From a virus (lineage: Duplodnaviria > Heunggongvirae > Uroviricota > Caudoviricetes): DNA of 41,590 nt. A program made the translations under genes and the position numbers. Numbering within the stretch: position 1 is the first letter of the stretch; every line of letters begins with the position of its first letter. Of the stretch, positions 8,123 to 33,269 are shown piece by piece. Under the pieces are notes generated by a model that made no database searches, was not told where the DNA came from, and worked only from the letters and a program-made list of their open reading frames with translations. Location of the stretch: IMG/VR virus record IMGVR_UViG_2585427774_000008; one strand, 5' to 3'.

Positions 8123-8518
8123 CTACTCACCATCCCCCTTAATCCGCCGTCCCATGTACTTGGCGTACAGTTCATCGAGTTCTTTCAACCGTAGAGATAC
8201 GATCCGCAACATGTTCTGTTGTTCTTCTTCGTTTGGGAGTTGATTATAGAGTTCCAACAGTCTCCGTTCGTCGTGTCTCAAACCGTCCTTAGCATCCACG
8301 TCCTGACCTAGAACCCACTCAAGACTTACGCCTAGCGCATCGGCAAGTTTTATTGCTGAGCTTTTTCCTATCGCTCCTCTGACAAACCAGTTGTTGACTG
8401 ATTGTGCGCTCACACCACAGATTCTCGCTATATCCGCTTTGGATATGCGCTTCTTCTCGATGATTTCATTTAACCGCCGAACCTGCGGGTTATCTGTTTG
8501 GTGTGTGTTTTTTCTCAT
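8123..8518 (-). CDS. HTH (XRE-family) prophage repressor, RacR/CI-like
   Basis: 131-aa ORF; HTH segment ISKADIARICGVSAQSVNNW; divergent from cro-like gene; no SD before ATG (likely leaderless); no S24 peptidase domain evident. Confidence 0.8.
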   Translation of the reverse strand: MRKNTHQTDNPQVRRLNEIIEKKRISKADIARICGVSAQSVNNWFVRGAIGKSSAIKLADALGVSLEWVLGQDVDAKDGLRHDERRLLELYNQLPNEEEQQNMLRIVSLRLKELDELYAKYMGRRIKGDGE

Positions 8519-8621: not shown

Positions 8622-8855
8622 ATGAAAGCACTTGATAAAGCAATATGCATCGTAGGGGGTGCAACCCGTTTAGCAGAAAAGCTCAATGTATCCCCAATGA
8701 CGGTCAGTCACTGGCGTCACCGTGACAATGGATTCGTACCGGCTAACCGTGTCATTCCTATTTTCAATGCTACAGGTGTAACTCCACATGAGTTACGCCC
8801 TGATTTGTACCTCAACCCTACGGATGGGTTACCAGCTCAGGAAGCGGGGGCATAA
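8622..8855 (+). CDS. Cro-like HTH regulator, YdaS family
   Basis: 77 aa from ATG at 8622 with GGAG SD (ORF track N-terminal extension rejected); MKALDKAI...GGATRLAEKLNVSPMTVSHW resembles YdaS/Cro-like proteins. Confidence 0.75.
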   Translation: MKALDKAICIVGGATRLAEKLNVSPMTVSHWRHRDNGFVPANRVIPIFNATGVTPHELRPDLYLNPTDGLPAQEAGA

Positions 8856-8857
8856 CC

Positions 8858-9397
8858 ATGCAGTCACTGTCACTTCATCAAAATAGCGGATATCAACCGG
8901 CTGCGATGATAAATCGCAATCAACCTGTCTCGGTAGATAAACATGACCAGATCCGCGATGCCGTTCGTGCGTGGGCGGGTGTAGATGGTCAGGATGTCGT
9001 TTCTGCTCTGATCGTCGAAGAGTACCGGGCGAAGGGTGGTGACGAGATTACTTTCCCTAGCGATCTCAGCCGACAGCGTCAGAAGCTTTTCCGCTTTCTC
9101 GATAACCATTTCAATAGCGAGCGGTACCGCGAGAACGTTCGTCAGTTGACGCCGGCAATTCTTGCTGTTCTGCCGCTCGAGTTCCGCAATCGCCTGCTAC
9201 CAGAAGACAACGTTATGGCCCGTCTGGCTCGGCTGGAGAAAGAAACCAGCGAAGCGAAGATTGCCGTCGCGATGAATGCTCCACGTCATCAGAAGCTGAA
9301 AGAGTTGAGCGAGGGGATCGTGGAGATGTACCGCGTTGACCCTAGCTTAACCGGTCCATTGATGGAGATGGTGCAGATGATGCTGGGGGTTGTATGA
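8858..9397 (+). CDS. YdaT-like regulatory protein (cII-position)
   Basis: 179-aa ORF immediately downstream of YdaS-like gene, same arrangement as Rac ydaS-ydaT. Confidence 0.5.
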   Translation: MQSLSLHQNSGYQPAAMINRNQPVSVDKHDQIRDAVRAWAGVDGQDVVSALIVEEYRAKGGDEITFPSDLSRQRQKLFRFLDNHFNSERYRENVRQLTPAILAVLPLEFRNRLLPEDNVMARLARLEKETSEAKIAVAMNAPRHQKLKELSEGIVEMYRVDPSLTGPLMEMVQMMLGVV

Positions 9398-9481: not shown

Positions 9482-10390
9482 ATGTCAAATACCGCTGAAA
9501 TAATCAATTTCCCAAATAAAACCGAACAACCGGGAGGTCGTATGGCCGACCTGTCGAACGGGTATACCAAGGTCGCTAACGAGATCCAACAGCTTAAGCC
9601 TCGCCTGAGACTGTCAGGCCGGGAATGGCAATGTTTTGAGGCGGTGATCTGGCTTACCTACGGCTGGAACAAGAAACAGGACCGCGTGACAAATACGGTT
9701 ATTGCCGAGCTTACGGGCCTGAGCGATACGCATGTATCGGACGCGCTTAAGTCTCTCGCAGAACGCAAAATCATCTTTTCACAGAAGCAGGGCATGATGA
9801 AAATCGTCGGTGTAAACACTGACCTTTCAGCATGGATTTTAGACAAACCGGAAACGGGAAGAAAATTCCCGAAAACGGGAAAATCCTTCCCGAAATCAGG
9901 AATAACCTTCCCGAAAACGGTAGACACCCAATACAAGAACAAGAACAGTATTAAAAGATCTTCGTCCGAGAATTCTGACGAATCCTCTGACGCACGTCTG
10001 AAGAAATTTTTATCAACTCATCCTGAAGCTGCGGTCTACACACCATCCGGTGCGAAGTGGGGCTCTGCTGAAGACCTCGAGACAGCTAAGTGGATTTCCT
10101 CCAGGGTGAAGCTGATTAACCCAACCTGCAAAGCCCCGGACATGACCTCCTGGTCTAACACTGTTCGCCTGATGCGCCAGATAGACGACCGGTCGCACCA
10201 GGACATCTGCGCGCTGTATGACTGGGCTAGCAAACACCACTTCTGGCAGACCAACATCCTGAGTCCCGAAAGCCTGCGTAAGCAGTGGGACAAGCTGACA
10301 ATGCAGCGTAACGCCGGAGGTGAGCAGCGCGCTGTCAAGCCAGATCTGGACTTCAACAACACTGACTGGGCCTATGGGGTGATCCGATGA
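9482..10390 (+). CDS. Replication initiation protein, lambda O-like
   Basis: 302 aa from ATG at 9482 with GGAGA SD; N-terminal replisome-organiser-like region (LSGREWQCFEAVIWLTYGW...AELTGLSDTHVSDALKSL); contains iterons. Confidence 0.8.
   Translation: MSNTAEIINFPNKTEQPGGRMADLSNGYTKVANEIQQLKPRLRLSGREWQCFEAVIWLTYGWNKKQDRVTNTVIAELTGLSDTHVSDALKSLAERKIIFSQKQGMMKIVGVNTDLSAWILDKPETGRKFPKTGKSFPKSGITFPKTVDTQYKNKNSIKRSSSENSDESSDARLKKFLSTHPEAAVYTPSGAKWGSAEDLETAKWISSRVKLINPTCKAPDMTSWSNTVRLMRQIDDRSHQDICALYDWASKHHFWQTNILSPESLRKQWDKLTMQRNAGGEQRAVKPDLDFNNTDWAYGVIR
9846..9923 (+). repeat. Iterons (candidate replication origin) inside O-like gene
   Basis: Four direct repeats of (t/a)cccgaaa(a/t)c(g/a)gg starting at 9846, 9867, 9888, 9909 with exact 21-bp spacing, followed by A-rich tract; encodes FPKTG/FPKSG peptide repeats. 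Confidence 0.65.
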
Positions 10391-11076
10391 AATCTCTTGC
10401 AGAGCAGATGCGTAACCACGACCGCGAGCAGATGAGCCGCATGGCCCATAACCTGCCAGAGCAGTACCAGGAGTGCGCGCTGGTCGAGCAGGTGGCGCAG
10501 GTATTCAACAAGCTGTTCAACGAGCTGCGCGCCGCGTTCCCGGCCAGCATGGCGAACTTTCGCACCCAGGAAGACCTGAACGAATTCCGCCGTCAGTGGC
10601 TGCTGGCGTTTCAGGAGAACGGGATCCACACCATGGCTCAGGTCGATGCCGGCATGCGCATTGCCCGCCGCCAGGAGCGCCCATTCCTGCCGTCGCCGGG
10701 CCAGTTCGTAGCCTGGTGCAAGCAGAGCGGCGGCGCGCTGGGCGTCAACGTTGACCAGGTGATCGCCGAATACTGGGACTGGCGTAACCGCTCGTTCGAA
10801 TTCATCTCCAGCGAGCAATTTCCATGGTCGCAGCCGGTCATGTACCACATTTGCGTAGAATTGCGCCACCGCAGCACCGAGCGCCAGTTAACGCATGGTG
10901 AACTGGCACGCGAGGCAGGCGATCTGCTGGACATGTGGGAAAGGCGCGTCACCGAGGGTAAGCCAGTGCCGCCGGTACGCCGGGCTATTGCCGCACCAGC
11001 TGCCGAGCAAGGGCCGACGCCGATCCAGCTGCTGCTGGCCAAGTACAACCGCAACAAGTCGAACGGGATGGTGTGA
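10387..11076 (+). CDS. P: Replication protein P (DnaB helicase loader), lambda P-like
   Basis: 229-aa ORF; closely resembles lambda P as recalled (FDREQM...MPEQY...RPFLPSPGQFVAWC). Confidence 0.9.
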   Translation: MKSLAEQMRNHDREQMSRMAHNLPEQYQECALVEQVAQVFNKLFNELRAAFPASMANFRTQEDLNEFRRQWLLAFQENGIHTMAQVDAGMRIARRQERPFLPSPGQFVAWCKQSGGALGVNVDQVIAEYWDWRNRSFEFISSEQFPWSQPVMYHICVELRHRSTERQLTHGELAREAGDLLDMWERRVTEGKPVPPVRRAIAAPAAEQGPTPIQLLLAKYNRNKSNGMV

Positions 11077-11138: not shown

Positions 11139-11318
11139 ATGCCAAACTGGCAGGGCTTCCCGGAGTGGTACATCATCGATCAGGACTATCGGGGGCAGAA
11201 GTACGCGAAGGACAAGCAGGTTGCGCGTTGTGGCAACGCAGTTCCGCCGCCATTCGCCGAGGCACTGGTGAGGGCTAATTTACCGGAGCTTTGTCAGCAG
11301 AAAGAGATCGCAGCTTAA
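11139..11318 (+). pseudogene. C-terminal remnant of a C5-cytosine DNA methyltransferase
   Basis: 59-codon ORF ending ...QGFPEWYII...ARCGNAVPPPFAEALVRANLPELCQQKEIAA; GNAVPP is the motif X signature; no upstream catalytic motifs present. Confidence 0.5.
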
Positions 11319-11906
11319 TGTCCGAGTTTCAGAACATGGTGTAACAAATCCTGCTACTTCAATGACGTAGATTCAAACCTGATATAATTAGGCTCTTCAC
11401 AACACGAGGAGCCTAAAATGCACCATTACATGATCCCTATCAACGGAACTGTTCACCTGATCAAGACTGACTCTCTAATCCCTGAAGGGACTGAGTATAG
11501 CTTTGAAGGAGAAAGTCTAATCTGCGCTCATGCCACTTTTAAATCTGGGACGTATGGCTTCCTGATACCAAAGGGAAATCAGTTGAATAGAGAGCATGCG
11601 TTCTGGCATGTAAGTGGAATTCACCCTAATCCCCTGGGAATGGATAAATCGTAATCCATAATATGCATGCCATCGTCCTGAACATACGGTGGCATGCATC
11701 CGGCACTACAACAGAAACGTTAAAGTGCAAACAATACAATTCGAGCAATATTCAACCTGTCACAGATGGCGAATACCACCGCCATTTCGTGCATTCTGTG
11801 GTTTCTATTACCCATTGCGTTAATGCTGTCCAATCATCAGCTCGCTGAGGCGCTGGTTAGGGCTAACCTACAGGAGCTTTGTCAGCAGAAACAAATAGCG
11901 GCGTAA
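11255..11906 (+). repeat. Diverged direct repeat pair (about 64 bp, about 83 percent identity) flanking an inserted segment
   Basis: 11255-11318 and 11843-11906 both encode AEALVRANL(P/Q)ELCQQK(E/Q)IAA-stop; 11 mismatches counted by eye. Confidence 0.6.
11418..11654 (+). CDS. Hypothetical moron protein
   Basis: 78-aa ORF with AGGAG SD and upstream AT-rich promoter-like sequence (gatataatt); lies between the repeat pair. Confidence 0.4.
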   Translation: MHHYMIPINGTVHLIKTDSLIPEGTEYSFEGESLICAHATFKSGTYGFLIPKGNQLNREHAFWHVSGIHPNPLGMDKS

Positions 11907-11924: not shown

Positions 11925-11952
11925 ACCCGCTACGGCGGGGTTTTTTTTTTTT
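11925..11952 (+). terminator. Rho-independent terminator
   Basis: cccgc-tacg-gcggg hairpin followed by 12 T. Confidence 0.7.
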
Positions 11953-12013
11953 CTACTGACAGAAAATTAACAATTTGTGCTCTTAAAGCGTTGATCATTT
12001 CCGCGCATAGGTA

Positions 12014-12033
12014 TACTGTATAAAAACACAGTA
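12014..12033 (+). promoter_or_regulatory. LexA (SOS) box overlapping promoter of dinI-like gene
   Basis: TACTGTATAAAAACACAGTA matches CTGT-N8-ACAG consensus; overlaps a TATACT -10 candidate about 20 nt upstream of the gene. Confidence 0.7.
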
Positions 12034-12051
12034 AATGCAATGGGGGCCATT

Positions 12052-12285
12052 ATGAAAGTTGAATTAACCATTGATCGCATGAAAGAACTTCCTAAAGGCG
12101 CAGTACCAGCACTGGAGAAAGAACTGCTTAAGCGCCTGAATGATCACTATGACAATTGCAGGCTCACAATCCGCCGTGCCGGGGCCGATGGGTTAAGTGT
12201 TTTTGGTGGTGACAAGGACGATAAAAAGAAAATTGAATCAATCCTCCAGGATACCTGGGAAAGCGCTGACGACTGGTTTTATTAG
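12052..12285 (+). CDS. dinI: DinI-family protein
   Basis: 77 aa from ATG at 12052; MKVELTIDRMKELPKGA...ILQDTWESADDWF closely resembles E. coli DinI as recalled. Confidence 0.85.
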   Translation: MKVELTIDRMKELPKGAVPALEKELLKRLNDHYDNCRLTIRRAGADGLSVFGGDKDDKKKIESILQDTWESADDWFY

Positions 12286-12402
12286 AATTGCGCTTAAGGC
12301 TGGCGCGCATTTTTCAGAATACCGCAATTTGCGTAACCCTCTGATGCTGCTGCCGACAATCTTTAATCGCGTCTGTTAGTCGCTCGAAGGGAGAACATAA
12401 AT

Positions 12403-12651
12403 GTGAGTGATTCAGCTTTGCAAACGTCAGAAGACAACTGGTATGACATTGTAAGAAGGTCTGACGGCTGCGTGGTGTTTAGCTTTCCTTCATCGGGCAG
12501 GCATCTAATTTATCGCGTCAATGGCATGGTTTCTATGCGGCCTTTGCTGGATGATGAAGAGGTCTTTACTCCTAATGGTTTTATGCAGTTTATTCACCGT
12601 CTCGGCTACCGGGTAACCCCACCTTCTGATAATATGAAATCAACGGTCTGA
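12403..12651 (+). CDS. Hypothetical protein
   Basis: 82-aa ORF from GTG with AGGGAG SD. Confidence 0.4.
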   Translation: MSDSALQTSEDNWYDIVRRSDGCVVFSFPSSGRHLIYRVNGMVSMRPLLDDEEVFTPNGFMQFIHRLGYRVTPPSDNMKSTV

Positions 12652-12685: not shown

Positions 12686-13285
12686 ATGGCGCACGAACTA
12701 CAACTCATCAAGCATTCCTCAGGAATCCTGATCCCCGCTACGCCGGAGACCAGTGATTTACTGCAATCAAAAATCAAACTCGGCTCCGTACTGGTGGCTG
12801 AGTTCCGGCAGGTACGCAACCCGGCCTTTCACCGTCGTTTCTTCGCGTTACTCAATCTCGGTTTCGAATACTGGGAACCCACCGGCGGGGCAATCTCCTC
12901 CAACGAACGCAAGCTGGTAACCGGCTATGCCAAGTTCCTTGCCTCATTCGCGGGAAGTGAAGCAGCACTCCTGGATGCTGCTGAGCAATATCTGGACCGC
13001 ATCGCCGATAAGCGTACTGGTAGCATCTGCGCCTGTAAGTCATTCGATGCATATCGTGCATGGGTCACTATTGAGTCCGGCCATTACGACGCCATTCAGC
13101 TGCCTGACGGCACCCTCCGCAAACATCCCCGCAGTATCTCATTCGCAAATATGGATGAAACTGAGTTCCAGCAGCTGTACAAAGCCGCGCTCGATGTTCT
13201 GTGGCGATGGATACTCTCCCGATCATTTCGCAGTTGTGAAGAGGCAGAAAACGCCGCCGCCCAGCTGATGAGCTTTGCGGGGTGA
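12686..13285 (+). CDS. Hypothetical nin-region protein
   Basis: 199-aa ORF with AGAGA SD-like sequence; typical position between replication genes and rusA. Confidence 0.55.
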   Translation: MAHELQLIKHSSGILIPATPETSDLLQSKIKLGSVLVAEFRQVRNPAFHRRFFALLNLGFEYWEPTGGAISSNERKLVTGYAKFLASFAGSEAALLDAAEQYLDRIADKRTGSICACKSFDAYRAWVTIESGHYDAIQLPDGTLRKHPRSISFANMDETEFQQLYKAALDVLWRWILSRSFRSCEEAENAAAQLMSFAG

Positions 13286-14143: not shown

Positions 14144-14280
14144 CATTTGAATCCTGTTTTTCCGATCACCTCCGCGTTCGCTGGCAGCGGCTTCGCTTAT
14201 ACCACTTTCCCGGCTCTGTGCTAACGGACTACCGGATACTGAAGAATTACGTGAAAACTTATGCTGGAGAAGCGCTATGA
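14140..14280 (+). CDS. YlcG-like small protein
   Basis: 46-aa ORF not in track ([25 protein letters not shown]...); ATGA overlaps with rusA stop and with Q start. Confidence 0.5.
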
Positions 14281-15059
14281 ACCTTGAAAACACAGTGAAA
14301 TACCACTTCGCTAAATCCACACTGATTAGCGATTCTCCGCGCGCTACCGCCTCCGATTCACTGACCGGTACCGACATAATGGCTGCCATGGGCATGACGC
14401 AGGAACGCGCCGCAATGGGTTACAGCGCCTTCCTCGGCAAGATGGGCATAAGCAATAACGACCGGGATCGGGCGATCGGTCTGCTGGCTGAGTACGCGAT
14501 GACAAAATGCGACAAGGTTGCCGCACTGCGTAAGCTCGGTGCCGCGGTTAAACCTCAGGTGATGCACCAGTTGGCCACCTTCGCTTTTGAGGACTATTCC
14601 CGCAGCGCTGCCAGCGTGAAGCAGTGCGATTGTTGTGACGGTCAGGGCTTCATTGAGGCTGACGTGTTTACCAATAAATTCCGTAAGCCAGAAGGGAAAA
14701 TGACCGTGTCCGGGATGGTGAAGGTCAAAGAATCCATCAAAGTGCTATGCAAAAAGTGTAATGGCTCTGGTGTGGTTAGTGCTTCTTGCAGTGATTGCCA
14801 TGGGCGCGGCAAGGCAGTGAACCAGGCTCTTACTGAGAAACAGGGCGTTCCTGTTCTGGCTGACTGTAAGCGCTGCGGAGGGCGTGGGTATGAACGACTT
14901 CCGTCGACTGAAGCCTATGCTGCTGTATGCCAGATTACTGACGCCATTAGCCTGGACACCTGGAAAAAGTCTGTTAAGCCATTCTACGACCTGCTGATCA
15001 CGAAATTTGATATCGAAGAGTCCTGGGCCGAAAAACAGCTTAAGCAGATAACGCGGTAA
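14277..15059 (+). CDS. Late-gene antiterminator Q-like protein
   Basis: 260-aa ORF with GGAGAAG SD; four CxxCxGxG zinc-finger repeats; positioned between rusA and lysis cassette. Confidence 0.65.
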   Translation: MNLENTVKYHFAKSTLISDSPRATASDSLTGTDIMAAMGMTQERAAMGYSAFLGKMGISNNDRDRAIGLLAEYAMTKCDKVAALRKLGAAVKPQVMHQLATFAFEDYSRSAASVKQCDCCDGQGFIEADVFTNKFRKPEGKMTVSGMVKVKESIKVLCKKCNGSGVVSASCSDCHGRGKAVNQALTEKQGVPVLADCKRCGGRGYERLPSTEAYAAVCQITDAISLDTWKKSVKPFYDLLITKFDIEESWAEKQLKQITR

Positions 15060-30596: not shown

Positions 30597-32667
30597 CGCA
30601 GATACGATTAAAGATTTCCTTGTTTCGCTGGGATTCGATATCGATCAGGCTGGCGCTAATAAGTTTGAAGCCGTGCTGAAAGGCGTTACAGCTAACGTTC
30701 TGAAGGTCGGCGCGGTGGTGGAAGGCGCAGCGCTGAGCATTGTCGGATTTACCACTCAGATCGCGAACGGTCTGGATAAAATTTACTGGGCATCCCAGCG
30801 GACGGGGGCCAGTGTCCAGGGCATCAAAGCGCTGGGATACGCCGCATCGCAAACCGGTGCCAGCGCCGAGTCGGCTATGTCCTCCCTCGAAGGGCTGGCC
30901 GGTTTCATGCGTAGCAATCCGGGCGCGGAAGGCTTCCTGAACCGCCTGGGCGTCCAGACTCGCGATGCCAGCGGAAAGATGCGTGATACTGCGGCCATCT
31001 TTACTGGCGTTGGGCAAAAGCTCAACAACATGCCGTATTACCGCGCGAAACAATACGCGCAGATGCTTGGCATCGATGAAAACACGCTGATGGCGATGCG
31101 GCGCGACATGAATGGCTTTACCGCCGATTACCAGTCGATGCTGCAAAAGACAGGGTTCAACGCTGATAAAGCGGCTGTTCAGTCCAACAAATTCATGACG
31201 TCCATGCGCGGGCTTACGTCGCTGTTCGGCATCATGCGGGACAAGATCGGCTCAAACCTCGCTGGTGGCCTGGCTGGTTCGCTGGACAGCCTGCGGCGGC
31301 GCATCCTCGACAATTTCCCGAAGATTGAAGAGACGCTGACCAGAGTTATTAAAGGCGTGATCTGGCTTGCGAACGCATTCACGAGAATGGCGTGGCGGCT
31401 GATACAGGGCGCTGGCTCTGTCATCGACTGGTGGAAGCGTCTTGACGATGGCAGTAAAAATCTGCTGAAAATATTCGGTGCTCTACTGGTCGCATGGCGT
31501 CTGCTTAATTCTGCGTTCCTGAAATCCCCGATTGGAATTATCACCACACTGATTCTGGCGATCGGATTGCTGTACGACGATTACCAGACGTGGAAAGAGG
31601 GCGGTAAAAGCCTGATTGACTGGTCCAAATGGCAGCCAGAAATTGAGCAGGCAAAGAAGGTGTTCAAGTGGCTGCGCGATAAGTTTCTGGAGCTCAAGGA
31701 CAACCTCGGCGGCTGGAAAAATACGCTCACCATCCTGTTTGGCTTTCTGGCTGGTGCGAAGCTGGTCTCCATGCTCACTGGCATCGGGCGACTTGTCGCC
31801 GGATTTATGGGGCTTGGTAAGGCAATTGGCGGCTCTATTGGTGGGCTGGGTAAGCTGGCGCAGGGGATCGCACAGCTGGCAATCAAGAATCCATGGTTGC
31901 TTATGTTCATTCCTGCCAACAATACGCCGACCACCAGTGAAGAAATGGCGTCGATTGGCGGTATAGGCAGCAATATCGTACCTGAAAGGCAGCAGGCATA
32001 TGAGGCGCTGAGAAAGGAAAATCCCGGCAAAGACTTTTTCACTGATGAGCAAATCCAGCGAAAAATTCAGGAGATGGGACTGGAGCCGGAGCAGCGAGCG
32101 CAGTCGGTTAAGCGACCTCAGGCGACGGCCCAGGGCAAGGTATTGCTCGACTGGATGGGGCCAATGTTCAATAAACTGGAGTCGCTTTATCAGCTGCCAG
32201 CTGGCCTGTTGAAAAGCGTGGCGATCACCGAGTCGGGTGGTAACCAGTTCGCCATATCCGGCGCAGGCGCGAAAGGACTGTTTCAGTTTATGGATGGCAC
32301 GGCGCGCGACATGGGCCTGCGTGGGAATGATGTATTCGACCCGGAAAAGTCAGCTCAGGCAGCCGCTAAGTACCTCAGCCAGCTGTTGCGGCAGAACGGC
32401 GGAGACCTTAGCAAAGCACTGGCATCATATAACTGGGGGATCGGGAATGTTAAGCGTTATGGAATGGGGCTAATGCCGCAGGAAACGCGCAACTACATTC
32501 CGAAAGTAATGAGCAATATGCCCACCAGCGCCCCGGTGATTCAGCAGGAAACGAATATTAACATCCACGGCGTTTTCGATCCGCGCGAGGCTGCCCGTTT
32601 GACTGTTGACCGTCAAAAGGGCGTGAATTCACAGTTAACCCAGCAACTCCCCGCAGGACCGAGATAA
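30586..32667 (+). CDS. Tail tape measure protein with C-terminal lytic transglycosylase (SLT) domain
   Basis: 693-aa ORF; central hydrophobic/Gly-rich segments; C-terminal SLT motifs ITESGGNQFAISGAGAKGLFQFM...YNWG. Confidence 0.8.
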   Translation: MSGNADTIKDFLVSLGFDIDQAGANKFEAVLKGVTANVLKVGAVVEGAALSIVGFTTQIANGLDKIYWASQRTGASVQGIKALGYAASQTGASAESAMSSLEGLAGFMRSNPGAEGFLNRLGVQTRDASGKMRDTAAIFTGVGQKLNNMPYYRAKQYAQMLGIDENTLMAMRRDMNGFTADYQSMLQKTGFNADKAAVQSNKFMTSMRGLTSLFGIMRDKIGSNLAGGLAGSLDSLRRRILDNFPKIEETLTRVIKGVIWLANAFTRMAWRLIQGAGSVIDWWKRLDDGSKNLLKIFGALLVAWRLLNSAFLKSPIGIITTLILAIGLLYDDYQTWKEGGKSLIDWSKWQPEIEQAKKVFKWLRDKFLELKDNLGGWKNTLTILFGFLAGAKLVSMLTGIGRLVAGFMGLGKAIGGSIGGLGKLAQGIAQLAIKNPWLLMFIPANNTPTTSEEMASIGGIGSNIVPERQQAYEALRKENPGKDFFTDEQIQRKIQEMGLEPEQRAQSVKRPQATAQGKVLLDWMGPMFNKLESLYQLPAGLLKSVAITESGGNQFAISGAGAKGLFQFMDGTARDMGLRGNDVFDPEKSAQAAAKYLSQLLRQNGGDLSKALASYNWGIGNVKRYGMGLMPQETRNYIPKVMSNMPTSAPVIQQETNINIHGVFDPREAARLTVDRQKGVNSQLTQQLPAGPR

Positions 32668-33269
32668 TGGATATTTTATCAGCGATTTTTCGCCAGCAAT
32701 CCCGGCGAATTGGAATATTAATCCCCAGCGTGGTTGTTTCTGAAAAGCATTCTGATGCGCTAGAAATTACTGAGCACCCGGTGGAGAAGCCAACAACGAA
32801 TAGCGCGTCGGGTTTCATCGCCGATCATGCGTATAAGCGCCCCAGCGAAGTCACGATGGAATGCGGCTTCGCAGGTGGCGGTTCGTTGCTGGACTTCATT
32901 GATACATCGTCAATCGGCCTCAGCGCCGGACTTAGCCCGAAAGAGACCTATCAGCAACTACTGGATCTCCAGTCCTCTCGGGTGCCGTTCGATGTAGTGA
33001 CCGGAAAGCGGGTTTACAGCAATATGCTGGTGCGAGCCATCGAGGTGACAACGGATAAAACCAGCGAGAACGTGCTGAACTGCACGCTTACCCTGCGTGA
33101 AGTGATCATGTCGCAGACGCAGAGCGTTAGCGTTGCAGATAAATCAGATATGCAGGATGGCGTCAGCACATCGGCGGTGCAAAATTCCGGGACGAAATCC
33201 ACTACACAGCCAAACGAATCCTTGCTGAGCCAGCTTGGCGGAAGCGTTACATCAGCATTCGGGGGATGA
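32667..33269 (+). CDS. Hypothetical tail/baseplate protein
   Basis: 200-aa ORF, TAATG overlap with tape measure. Confidence 0.5.
   Translation: MDILSAIFRQQSRRIGILIPSVVVSEKHSDALEITEHPVEKPTTNSASGFIADHAYKRPSEVTMECGFAGGGSLLDFIDTSSIGLSAGLSPKETYQQLLDLQSSRVPFDVVTGKRVYSNMLVRAIEVTTDKTSENVLNCTLTLREVIMSQTQSVSVADKSDMQDGVSTSAVQNSGTKSTTQPNESLLSQLGGSVTSAFGG

Follow-up and report, generated by a model that had tools for sequence, protein, structure and literature searches.

A LexA-controlled dinI-antirepressor operon as the probable SOS induction module of a Gifsy/Rac-type lambdoid prophage

How does DNA damage reach the lytic switch of a lambdoid prophage whose repressor seems unable to cleave itself? The question is raised by a DinI-family gene in a caudoviricete prophage (IMG/VR record IMGVR_UViG_2585427774_000008), of which the whole stretch of DNA analysed, hereafter the window, comprises 41.6 kb. 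A first-pass annotation had placed an SOS box over the promoter of this gene, regarded the gene as the prophage's own SOS-responsive modulator of RecA, and suggested that it could feed into induction control. In our reading, the locus is the SOS-controlled unit for induction of a lambdoid prophage of the Gifsy/Rac type, with an antirepressor coupling DNA damage to induction, and we assign this reading a rough probability of 0.85. The features on which it is based are listed in Table 1.

The operon arrangement was already described in 2011 and the mechanism is known (PMC3121763). Gifsy repressors are short, are not cleaved upon induction, and are inactivated by small antirepressors (Lemire, Figueroa-Bossi & Bossi 2011, PMC3121763), which bind the repressors and release them from DNA and which are transcribed from a LexA-controlled dinI promoter. 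When the LexA-box region was swapped for PBAD, mitomycin C induction of Gifsy-2 was lost; a small GUG-initiated ORF expressed alone from PBAD suffices for prophage induction, and non-polar deletions of dinI or irsA had no significant effect on Gifsy induction (PMC3121763). A single SNP in the -10 hexamer of PdinI-gfoA abolishes induction of Gifsy-1 (Owen et al., PMC5322425). Nalidixic acid raised expression of the Gifsy dinI homologues 4.6-23-fold (Mérida-Floriano et al., PMC8072944); there are three of these, and all have a single LexA box (HI 3.9-5.3) 19 bp from the ATG. A Gifsy-type system has also been used as an SOS/induction reporter (PMC13090387).

Table 1. Features of the dinI locus and of the immunity and replication regions in the window
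Feature	Position	Strand	Basis or remark
Prophage repressor, 131 aa, HTH_3 only, GfoR/GfhR/DicA family	8123..8518	-	Pfam, terminus comparison
YdaS-like Cro	8622-8855	+	Divergent early-right gene; immunity region
YdaT-like protein	8858-9397	+	Divergent early-right gene; immunity region
Replication protein P gene	10387-11076		Replication O/P genes end at 11076
Intrinsic-terminator-like hairpin, CCCGC-TACG-GCGGG followed by a T12 run	11926..11952	+	Terminator scan and sequence
Putative sigma-70 promoter PdinI	11991..12019	+	-35/-10 hexamers read by eye
Putative LexA (SOS) box, TACTGTATAAAAACACAGTA	12014..12033	+	18 nt between box end and dinI ATG
dinI homologue, 77 aa, first operon gene	12052..12285	+	Pfam PF06183, PHROG 189, 1GHH match
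Conserved spacer, 117 nt, dinI to antirepressor ORF	12286..12402	+	Common to GfoA-type and GftA-type loci
GTG-initiated 82-aa ORF, GfoA-type antirepressor orthologue (predicted)	12403..12651	+	Synteny, identity, termini
irsA homologue (DUF1367; PHROG 'NinB/Orf-like'), third gene of the unit	12686..13285	+	Pfam PF07105, 309.9 bits

Results

The putative dinI promoter and its LexA box

The LexA box lies exactly where it had been claimed. The 20-mer is the only CTGT-N8-ACAG in the window and also the sole site with at most three mismatches to the LexA consensus TACTGTATATATATACAGTA, with which it agrees at 17 of 20 positions; no such site occurred in any of 100 dinucleotide-preserving shuffles. 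Its heterology index, calculated with a matrix of E. coli LexA sites, is about 2.0, against 10.7 at the next-best site in the window; these values are approximate and only indicative. For comparison we assembled 80 viral contigs that encode proteins closely related to this DinI, together with 5 loci from Citrobacter genomes. A CTGT-N8-ACAG box is found 18-19 nt 5' of the dinI ATG in all related loci with upstream sequence (83/83), so that a chance origin of the box is ruled out on this comparison. The 12 box variants among the 83 loci differ solely in the central bases and at the outermost positions. In its CTGT-N8-ACAG core, its fit to the consensus, and the retention of both half-sites across orthologous loci, the site is that of an enterobacterial LexA box.

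The placement of the box over the -10 region of the dinI gene, also part of the first-pass annotation, agrees with the best candidates that we could read by eye. A -35 candidate, TTGATC (11991-11996), is followed by either TATACT (12012-12017, 15-nt spacer) or TACTGT (12014-12019, 17-nt spacer); the box overlaps both -10 candidates and would cover the -10 and start region either way. When 55 distinct upstream regions are aligned, the -35 TTGA(T/A), the -10/box junction TATACTGT and the ACAG half-site are near-invariant, and the spacer between -35 and -10 is variable. Because a stricter consensus promoter scan called nothing around the dinI upstream region, where the hexamers are sub-optimal, the exact PdinI hexamers are to be read as putative.

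Upstream of the promoter, the intrinsic-terminator-like hairpin is kept in nearly all related loci displayed. It would insulate the SOS operon from transcription arriving from the upstream early-right genes. According to Lemire et al. (PMC3121763), every Gifsy prophage has a terminator-like palindrome 5' of its LexA box.

The dinI gene and its product

Membership of the DinI family is well supported. Pfam PF06183 matches the dinI product at 91.6 bits (cut-off 24.2) over profile positions 1-63 of 63, PHROG 189 'RecA filament binding protein DinI' matches as well, and phmmer aligns the product with E. coli DinI (1GHH) over residues about 1-78 (E = 9.5e-18). The C-terminal acidic helix is intact, reading ILQ(D/E)TWESADDWF (motif ILQDTWESADDWF). 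The score against the NCBIfam PRK10597 equivalog, 91.4 bits, lies below the 111-bit cut-off, and we therefore regard the protein as a phage paralogue and not as host DinI; it is 66% identical to DinI of Gifsy-2 (STM1019). Substitutions in dinI favour third positions (38/28/73 by codon position). The start is most likely the ATG at 12052, as indicated by the position of the Shine-Dalgarno sequence GGGGG (12042-12046; GGAGG in relatives) and by the 77-aa length of the Gifsy homologues. An alternative start at ATG 12040 was rejected on the same two grounds.

Chromosomal E. coli dinI belongs to the same family, and it has in common with the window gene the C-terminal acidic helix and a promoter-overlapping LexA box that is about as far from the ATG. 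Unlike the window gene, however, it is monocistronic, with a product of 81 aa and no antirepressor gene downstream.

The ORF downstream of dinI

The view of the SOS-controlled dinI as the prophage's modulator had overlooked a second gene. A GTG-initiated ORF of 82 codons begins 117 nt downstream of dinI, between dinI and irsA, which is the same place as that of gfoA and gftA in the Gifsy prophages, and it is an orthologue of gfoA. Its GTG is kept in all aligned loci and is preceded, 9 nt upstream, by a Shine-Dalgarno sequence GGGAG (12389-12393). The variable columns of the ORF are distributed 13/5/31 by codon position, and it thus evolves as a coding sequence.

The orthology is based on the termini encoded by published primers and on a 90%-identical Salmonella protein at the same locus. 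The termini of GfoA, GfoR, GfhR and IrsA were deduced from the primer table of PMC3121763. For GfoA they are MSNSALQK at the N-terminus and RRLGYRVTPPSDI at the C-terminus, and the 82-aa ORF reads MSDSALQT...HRLGYRVTPPSDNMKSTV. The Salmonella protein P0003, whose gene is flanked by dinI and DUF1367 on Salmonella contigs, is 90% identical to the window protein across all 82 residues. It agrees with the GfoA primers at 8/8 residues of MSNSALQK and, in the segment RRLGYRVTPPSD, at 12/13 C-terminal residues; it differs from primer-encoded GfoA at the last residue and runs 5 residues further. The third gene of the unit fits the same pattern, with 84% identity to Gifsy STM1020/STM2620 (tblastn) and an N-terminus, MAHELQLIKHS, close to the MAHELQLIKQS encoded by the irsA primers.

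The relationship of the 82-aa ORF to another Gifsy antirepressor, GftA, is a different matter. BLASTP found no similarity between the two, and hhalign of the 82-aa ORF family against GftA gave a weak, collinear match with a probability of 28%; we therefore do not claim shared ancestry of the GfoA and GftA families. GfoA and GfhA have been described as only distant relatives of GftA (PMC3121763).

Neither Pfam nor NCBIfam contains a model that matches the 82-aa ORF. The PHROGs to which the two antirepressor types belong, phrog_340 for the 82-aa ORF and phrog_4847 for the GftA type, are both of 'unknown function'. In phage mEp237, as in the E. coli genomes of RefSeq (PGAP), the 82-aa ORF is labelled 'hypothetical protein'. 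An AlphaFold2 model of the protein, of moderate confidence (mean pLDDT 67.7), has four beta strands and a C-terminal helix. A Foldseek search of this model against the PDB and BFVD returned one sequence homologue and no meaningful structural relative.

The repressor and the early-right region

That the repressor lacks an autocleavage domain had been suspected, and our searches bear this out. In the 131-aa protein, Pfam identifies HTH_3 and Phage_CI_repr helix-turn-helix matches only, together with a weak match to the DicA subfamily, and no Peptidase_S24. A tblastn search with LexA as query gave noise only (E >= 2.4), with no LexA-like C-terminal domain at any position of the window. A self-cleaving repressor of the Lambda CI or P22 C2 type is excluded, given that the S24 match is absent from the repressor.

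The repressor is 74% identical (91% similar) to P0152, an abundant protein of S. Typhimurium. P0152 starts with MKEKTHQ... and finishes with ...EKYMKGRIRTRED, which are the termini encoded by the gfoR primers; the C-terminus of GfhR, as given by its primers, is ...AKYMSRRIKGEGA. From the shared termini, the identities to P0003 and P0152, and the HTH-only composition of the repressor, it follows that the window carries a repressor-antirepressor pair of the GfoR/GfoA type. The 131-aa repressor is the presumed target of the 82-aa antirepressor.

Early-right gene order in the window runs from the repressor through Cro, the YdaT-like gene, the O/P genes, a truncated C-5 methylase gene and a 78-aa ORF to the terminator, and 3' of the terminator are found the LexA box, dinI, the 82-aa ORF, DUF1367, YbcO, RusA and Q. 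This arrangement marks the surroundings of dinI as early-right DNA of a lambdoid prophage. The Cro and YdaT-like pair is recognised by Pfam (PF15943, 58.1 bits; PF06254, 90.9 bits), and the immunity region is, by its gene content, a module of the Rac/Gifsy type. No terminator-like site was found by the scan on the + strand before 15156, so the transcript that starts at PdinI may extend further, possibly to Q (14277-15059). Coliphage mEp237 matches the segment at 94% identity. Among 5,426 complete E. coli genomes, 53 have a chromosomal prophage that matches it at 99.6%.

Comparison with known antirepressor systems

In both Gifsy-1 and Gifsy-2 of Salmonella LT2 we found the order LexA box, 77-aa DinI, conserved spacer, GTG-initiated 73-aa ORF and DUF1367. 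The window has the features of a Gifsy-type operon: this order of genes, a location that is 3' of the replication functions and not part of the immunity region, a GTG-initiated ORF, and an HTH-only repressor.

The dinI-gfoA-irsA operon of Gifsy-1 in Salmonella Typhimurium ATCC14028, whose repressor is GfoR, has the same layout as the window from the terminator through irsA/DUF1367, and in both cases a short HTH-only repressor is encoded several kb upstream of the operon. The two differ in backbone and host, the window belonging with E. coli chromosomes (99.6%) and mEp237 (94%), and in the centre of the box, which is TACTGTATAAAAACACAGTA in the window and TACTGTGTTTATATACAGTA in Gifsy-1. The antirepressor of the window also has a longer tail (…PPSDNMKSTV, against …PPSDI in Gifsy-1).

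The dinI-gftA operon of Gifsy-2 (and of LT2 Gifsy-1), with repressor GtgR/GftR, resembles the window in architecture, LexA control and the conserved junction between dinI and the spacer. However, the antirepressor belongs to phrog_4847 and that of the window to phrog_340, and the repressor types with which they are paired differ as well. Tum of coliphage 186 and AntC of N15 follow the same logic, namely a LexA-repressed antirepressor encoded outside the immunity region that acts on a non-cleavable repressor. Tum also bears a DinI-like half (PMC3121763), but there the antirepressor and DinI-like parts are fused and in the opposite order, whereas in the window they are separate ORFs and dinI comes first. 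A Tum-type fusion in the window was rejected, because in-frame stop codons and the 117-nt spacer separate the two ORFs.

Pairing of antirepressor and repressor types

Among loci with 83-100% identical DinI, the ORF that follows dinI falls into four discrete types: that of the window (ORF82), a relative 36-46% identical to it, a GftA-like type, and a fourth type of 78 aa. The ORF82 type was found with one repressor C-terminal type only, as defined by the last ~55 residues (27/27 loci). Many of these loci are closely related prophages, and the counts accordingly include phylogenetically non-independent loci; when repressor sequence and distance are taken together, the 27 loci give 22 different combinations, and the two genes lie 3.5-8.7 kb apart. 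The pairing with the repressor C-terminus holds across two different HTH types, and one natural chimera, which combines the same HTH type with a different C-terminus, carries another antirepressor type.

GfoA inactivates both GfoR and the heteroimmune repressor GfhR (PMC3121763), and the pairing of the ORF82 type with the repressor C-terminus agrees with this published action. The pattern suggests that the C-terminal helical region of the repressor may be the part recognised by the antirepressor. Lemire et al. (PMC3121763) report no mapping of the interaction surface.

The spacer between dinI and the antirepressor gene

The spacer is 81% identical to that of Gifsy-2, versus 60% across the first 190 nt of dinI. 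The junction formed by the 3' end of dinI and the spacer has 81-89% nucleotide identity to Gifsy-2, though the antirepressor ORFs that follow are unrelated. Across 29 haplotypes no other block varies less, in a calculation that leaves out one locus with a 12-nt deletion in dinI. In addition to the Shine-Dalgarno sequence of the antirepressor gene, the spacer carries a weak hairpin (12289-12307). The predicted RNA fold of the spacer is no better than that of shuffled sequences (z = 0.45), and an Rfam search of the spacer returned no match.

A hidden coding frame over the spacer (ORF 12197-12379) was considered and is not supported, as its variable columns fall mostly at codon position 2, although these columns are too few to be decisive. 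We rejected the hairpin as a true terminator, given its weak stem and its poor T tract, which is lost in some relatives. At most it is an attenuator: the stem and its short T tract could attenuate read-through into the antirepressor gene. The conserved junction may be a site of module exchange or, alternatively, a cis element for antirepressor expression.

Discussion

The proposed mechanism takes its biochemical steps from the Gifsy experiments, from which we infer LexA binding to the box, co-transcription of the genes, binding of the antirepressor to the repressor, and dispensability of DinI. In an undamaged lysogen, host LexA bound to the box would silence the PdinI operon. Upon DNA damage, RecA-stimulated cleavage of LexA would allow transcription of dinI, the antirepressor gene and irsA. 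The accumulated 82-aa antirepressor would then bind the short, non-cleavable repressor encoded ~3.9 kb upstream, and the repressor would leave its operators, such that the lytic programme starts. DinI would be co-expressed with the antirepressor and is probably not required for induction. Control of induction most likely runs through the antirepressor and not through DinI, because the Gifsy antirepressor alone is sufficient and non-polar deletions of dinI are without effect.

A role for DinI beside the antirepressor can still be conceived. Phage DinI could shape the SOS signal through its action on RecA filaments and thereby turn induction into a committed, thresholded switch, which we consider rather unlikely. 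In such a switch, DinI might, for instance, prolong LexA cleavage and the synthesis of antirepressor by stabilising the filaments, or it might block UmuD processing during replication of the phage genome, and both the recurrent linkage of DinI with antirepressors and the unusually conserved junction of the dinI 3' end with the spacer would reflect this coupling. Our literature searches found neither a function demonstrated for DinI encoded by a phage nor experimental work on the E. coli counterpart.

That phage DinI itself modulates induction, by binding RecA filaments and tuning the SOS signal so as to set the probability or timing of induction, is very unlikely. The solid family membership of the protein, its conserved RecA-interacting C-terminal helix and the promoter-proximal position of its gene are all compatible with such a function. 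The linkage of DinI with a LexA-controlled antirepressor also recurs, as a fusion in Tum of phage 186, as split genes in PSP3 and Fels-2, and as an operon in Gifsy (PMC3121763), and even among prophages whose antirepressor types are exchanged, DinI shows very strong conservation. However, production of the Gifsy antirepressor ORF alone from PBAD induces the prophage, the Gifsy dinI deletion data contradict a DinI-based model (PMC3121763), and DinI alone cannot inactivate an HTH-only repressor that does not undergo RecA-dependent cleavage. Of the earlier proposal that the locus feeds into induction control, the part that concerns the locus is thus retained, and the part that makes DinI acting on RecA the link is at odds with the Gifsy antirepressor and dinI-deletion data. 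As a separate point about these assays, the Gifsy dinI deletions were assessed by bulk lacZ measurements ('data not shown', PMC3121763), which could have missed an effect on threshold or timing.

[quoted passage not shown]

The value of assigning this locus to the antirepressor-based induction systems is more practical than conceptual, and lies in the annotation of antirepressor families. The gene that probably decides whether drug-inflicted damage induces this E. coli prophage is labelled only 'hypothetical protein'; as neither Pfam, NCBIfam, PHROGs nor RefSeq assigns a function to the antirepressor, annotation pipelines and a sequence-only reader alike see only 'dinI'. We predict that this prophage, and the prophages that carry the same segment in 53 of the 5,426 complete E. 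coli genomes, are induced via the LexA-controlled antirepressor, with possible cross-talk to heteroimmune prophages that share the repressor C-terminal domain.

Repressor C-terminus and antirepressor type

The window repressor (8123-8518, minus strand) was compared with the repressors of loci L004-L088, a set of related loci, and the type of antirepressor, that is, the family of the ORF after dinI, was found to follow the C-terminal ~55 residues of the repressor (the LLELYxQLPxEEQ...LKELDELYAKYM region) and not the helix-turn-helix (HTH). This pairing held in 27 of 27 cases and spans two HTH types, and the one natural repressor chimera, at locus L028, has the other antirepressor type. Taken together, the pairing and the chimera suggest that the antirepressor recognises the C-terminal domain of the repressor. 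Recognition of this kind predicts that heteroimmune prophages cross-induce one another.

Neither of the two experimentally defined Gifsy antirepressor families carries a functional label in PHROGs, Pfam, NCBIfam, RefSeq or phage records. Both phrog_340 and phrog_4847 are tagged 'unknown function', Pfam and NCBIfam have no model for either family, and RefSeq and phage records name the members 'hypothetical protein'. A 2026 preprint gives STM1019 as the Gifsy-2 antirepressor (PMC13320796), whereas the Gifsy-2 record (NC_010393) assigns STM1019 (L002 1812-2045) to the DinI homologue, and gftA, which encodes the antirepressor, lies downstream as the unnumbered ORF STM1020.1n; the dinI homologue and the antirepressor gene are therefore readily confused.

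Features of the SOS operon, its surroundings and the Gifsy-2 record (L002)
Feature	Position	Remarks
Direct repeat, 66 nt	11254-11319 and 11842-11907	copies 83% identical
78-aa ORF	11418-11654	phrog_30079, function unassigned
AACAATTTGTGCTCTTAAA	11970-11988	directly upstream of -35; strong conservation among related loci
Antirepressor ORF, window	12403-12651	
Antirepressor ORF, Gifsy-2	L002 2157-2378	
Q antiterminator gene	14277-15059	
TAATGGATATTTTATCAGCG	32665-32684	second-best LexA-like site of the window; approximate heterology index 10.7, indicative only

Conserved junction and possible downstream transcription

The antirepressor ORFs that flank the conserved junction at 12242-12402 are unrelated between the window and Gifsy-2. 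Identity between the two is 89% over the last 44 nt of dinI and 81% over the 117-nt spacer, against 60% over the first 190 nt of dinI, and across 29 haplotypes the spacer varies less than any other block. Within the spacer the RNA fold was not significant, Rfam gave no match, and a hidden ORF was unsupported. The junction could serve in recombination, allowing antirepressor modules to be swapped, or in cis control of the GTG-initiated gene.

On the plus strand, no terminator-like site lies between 12651 and 15156, from the antirepressor gene to past the end of Q, and thus a LexA-derepressed transcript might continue past irsA, ybcO and rusA and enter Q.

Promoter-proximal and upstream regions

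Within the conserved sequence upstream of the -35, GTGCT is invariant, Gifsy-type loci included, and this stretch may act as an UP-like element or as a second regulatory site. The LexA-like site at 32665-32684, which falls where two tail genes meet and lacks the CTGT/ACAG core, is probably a chance match.

Directly 5' of the SOS operon, the 78-aa ORF is flanked on both sides by copies of the 66-nt repeat, which duplicates the 3'-terminal part of a truncated ORF for a C-5 cytosine methylase. GC content falls from ~0.60 to ~0.42-0.47 from position 11300 on, and the arrangement looks like a moron-type insertion. Salmonella contigs carry different cargo at the same position (hok/gef, ORF6N, Nmad5).
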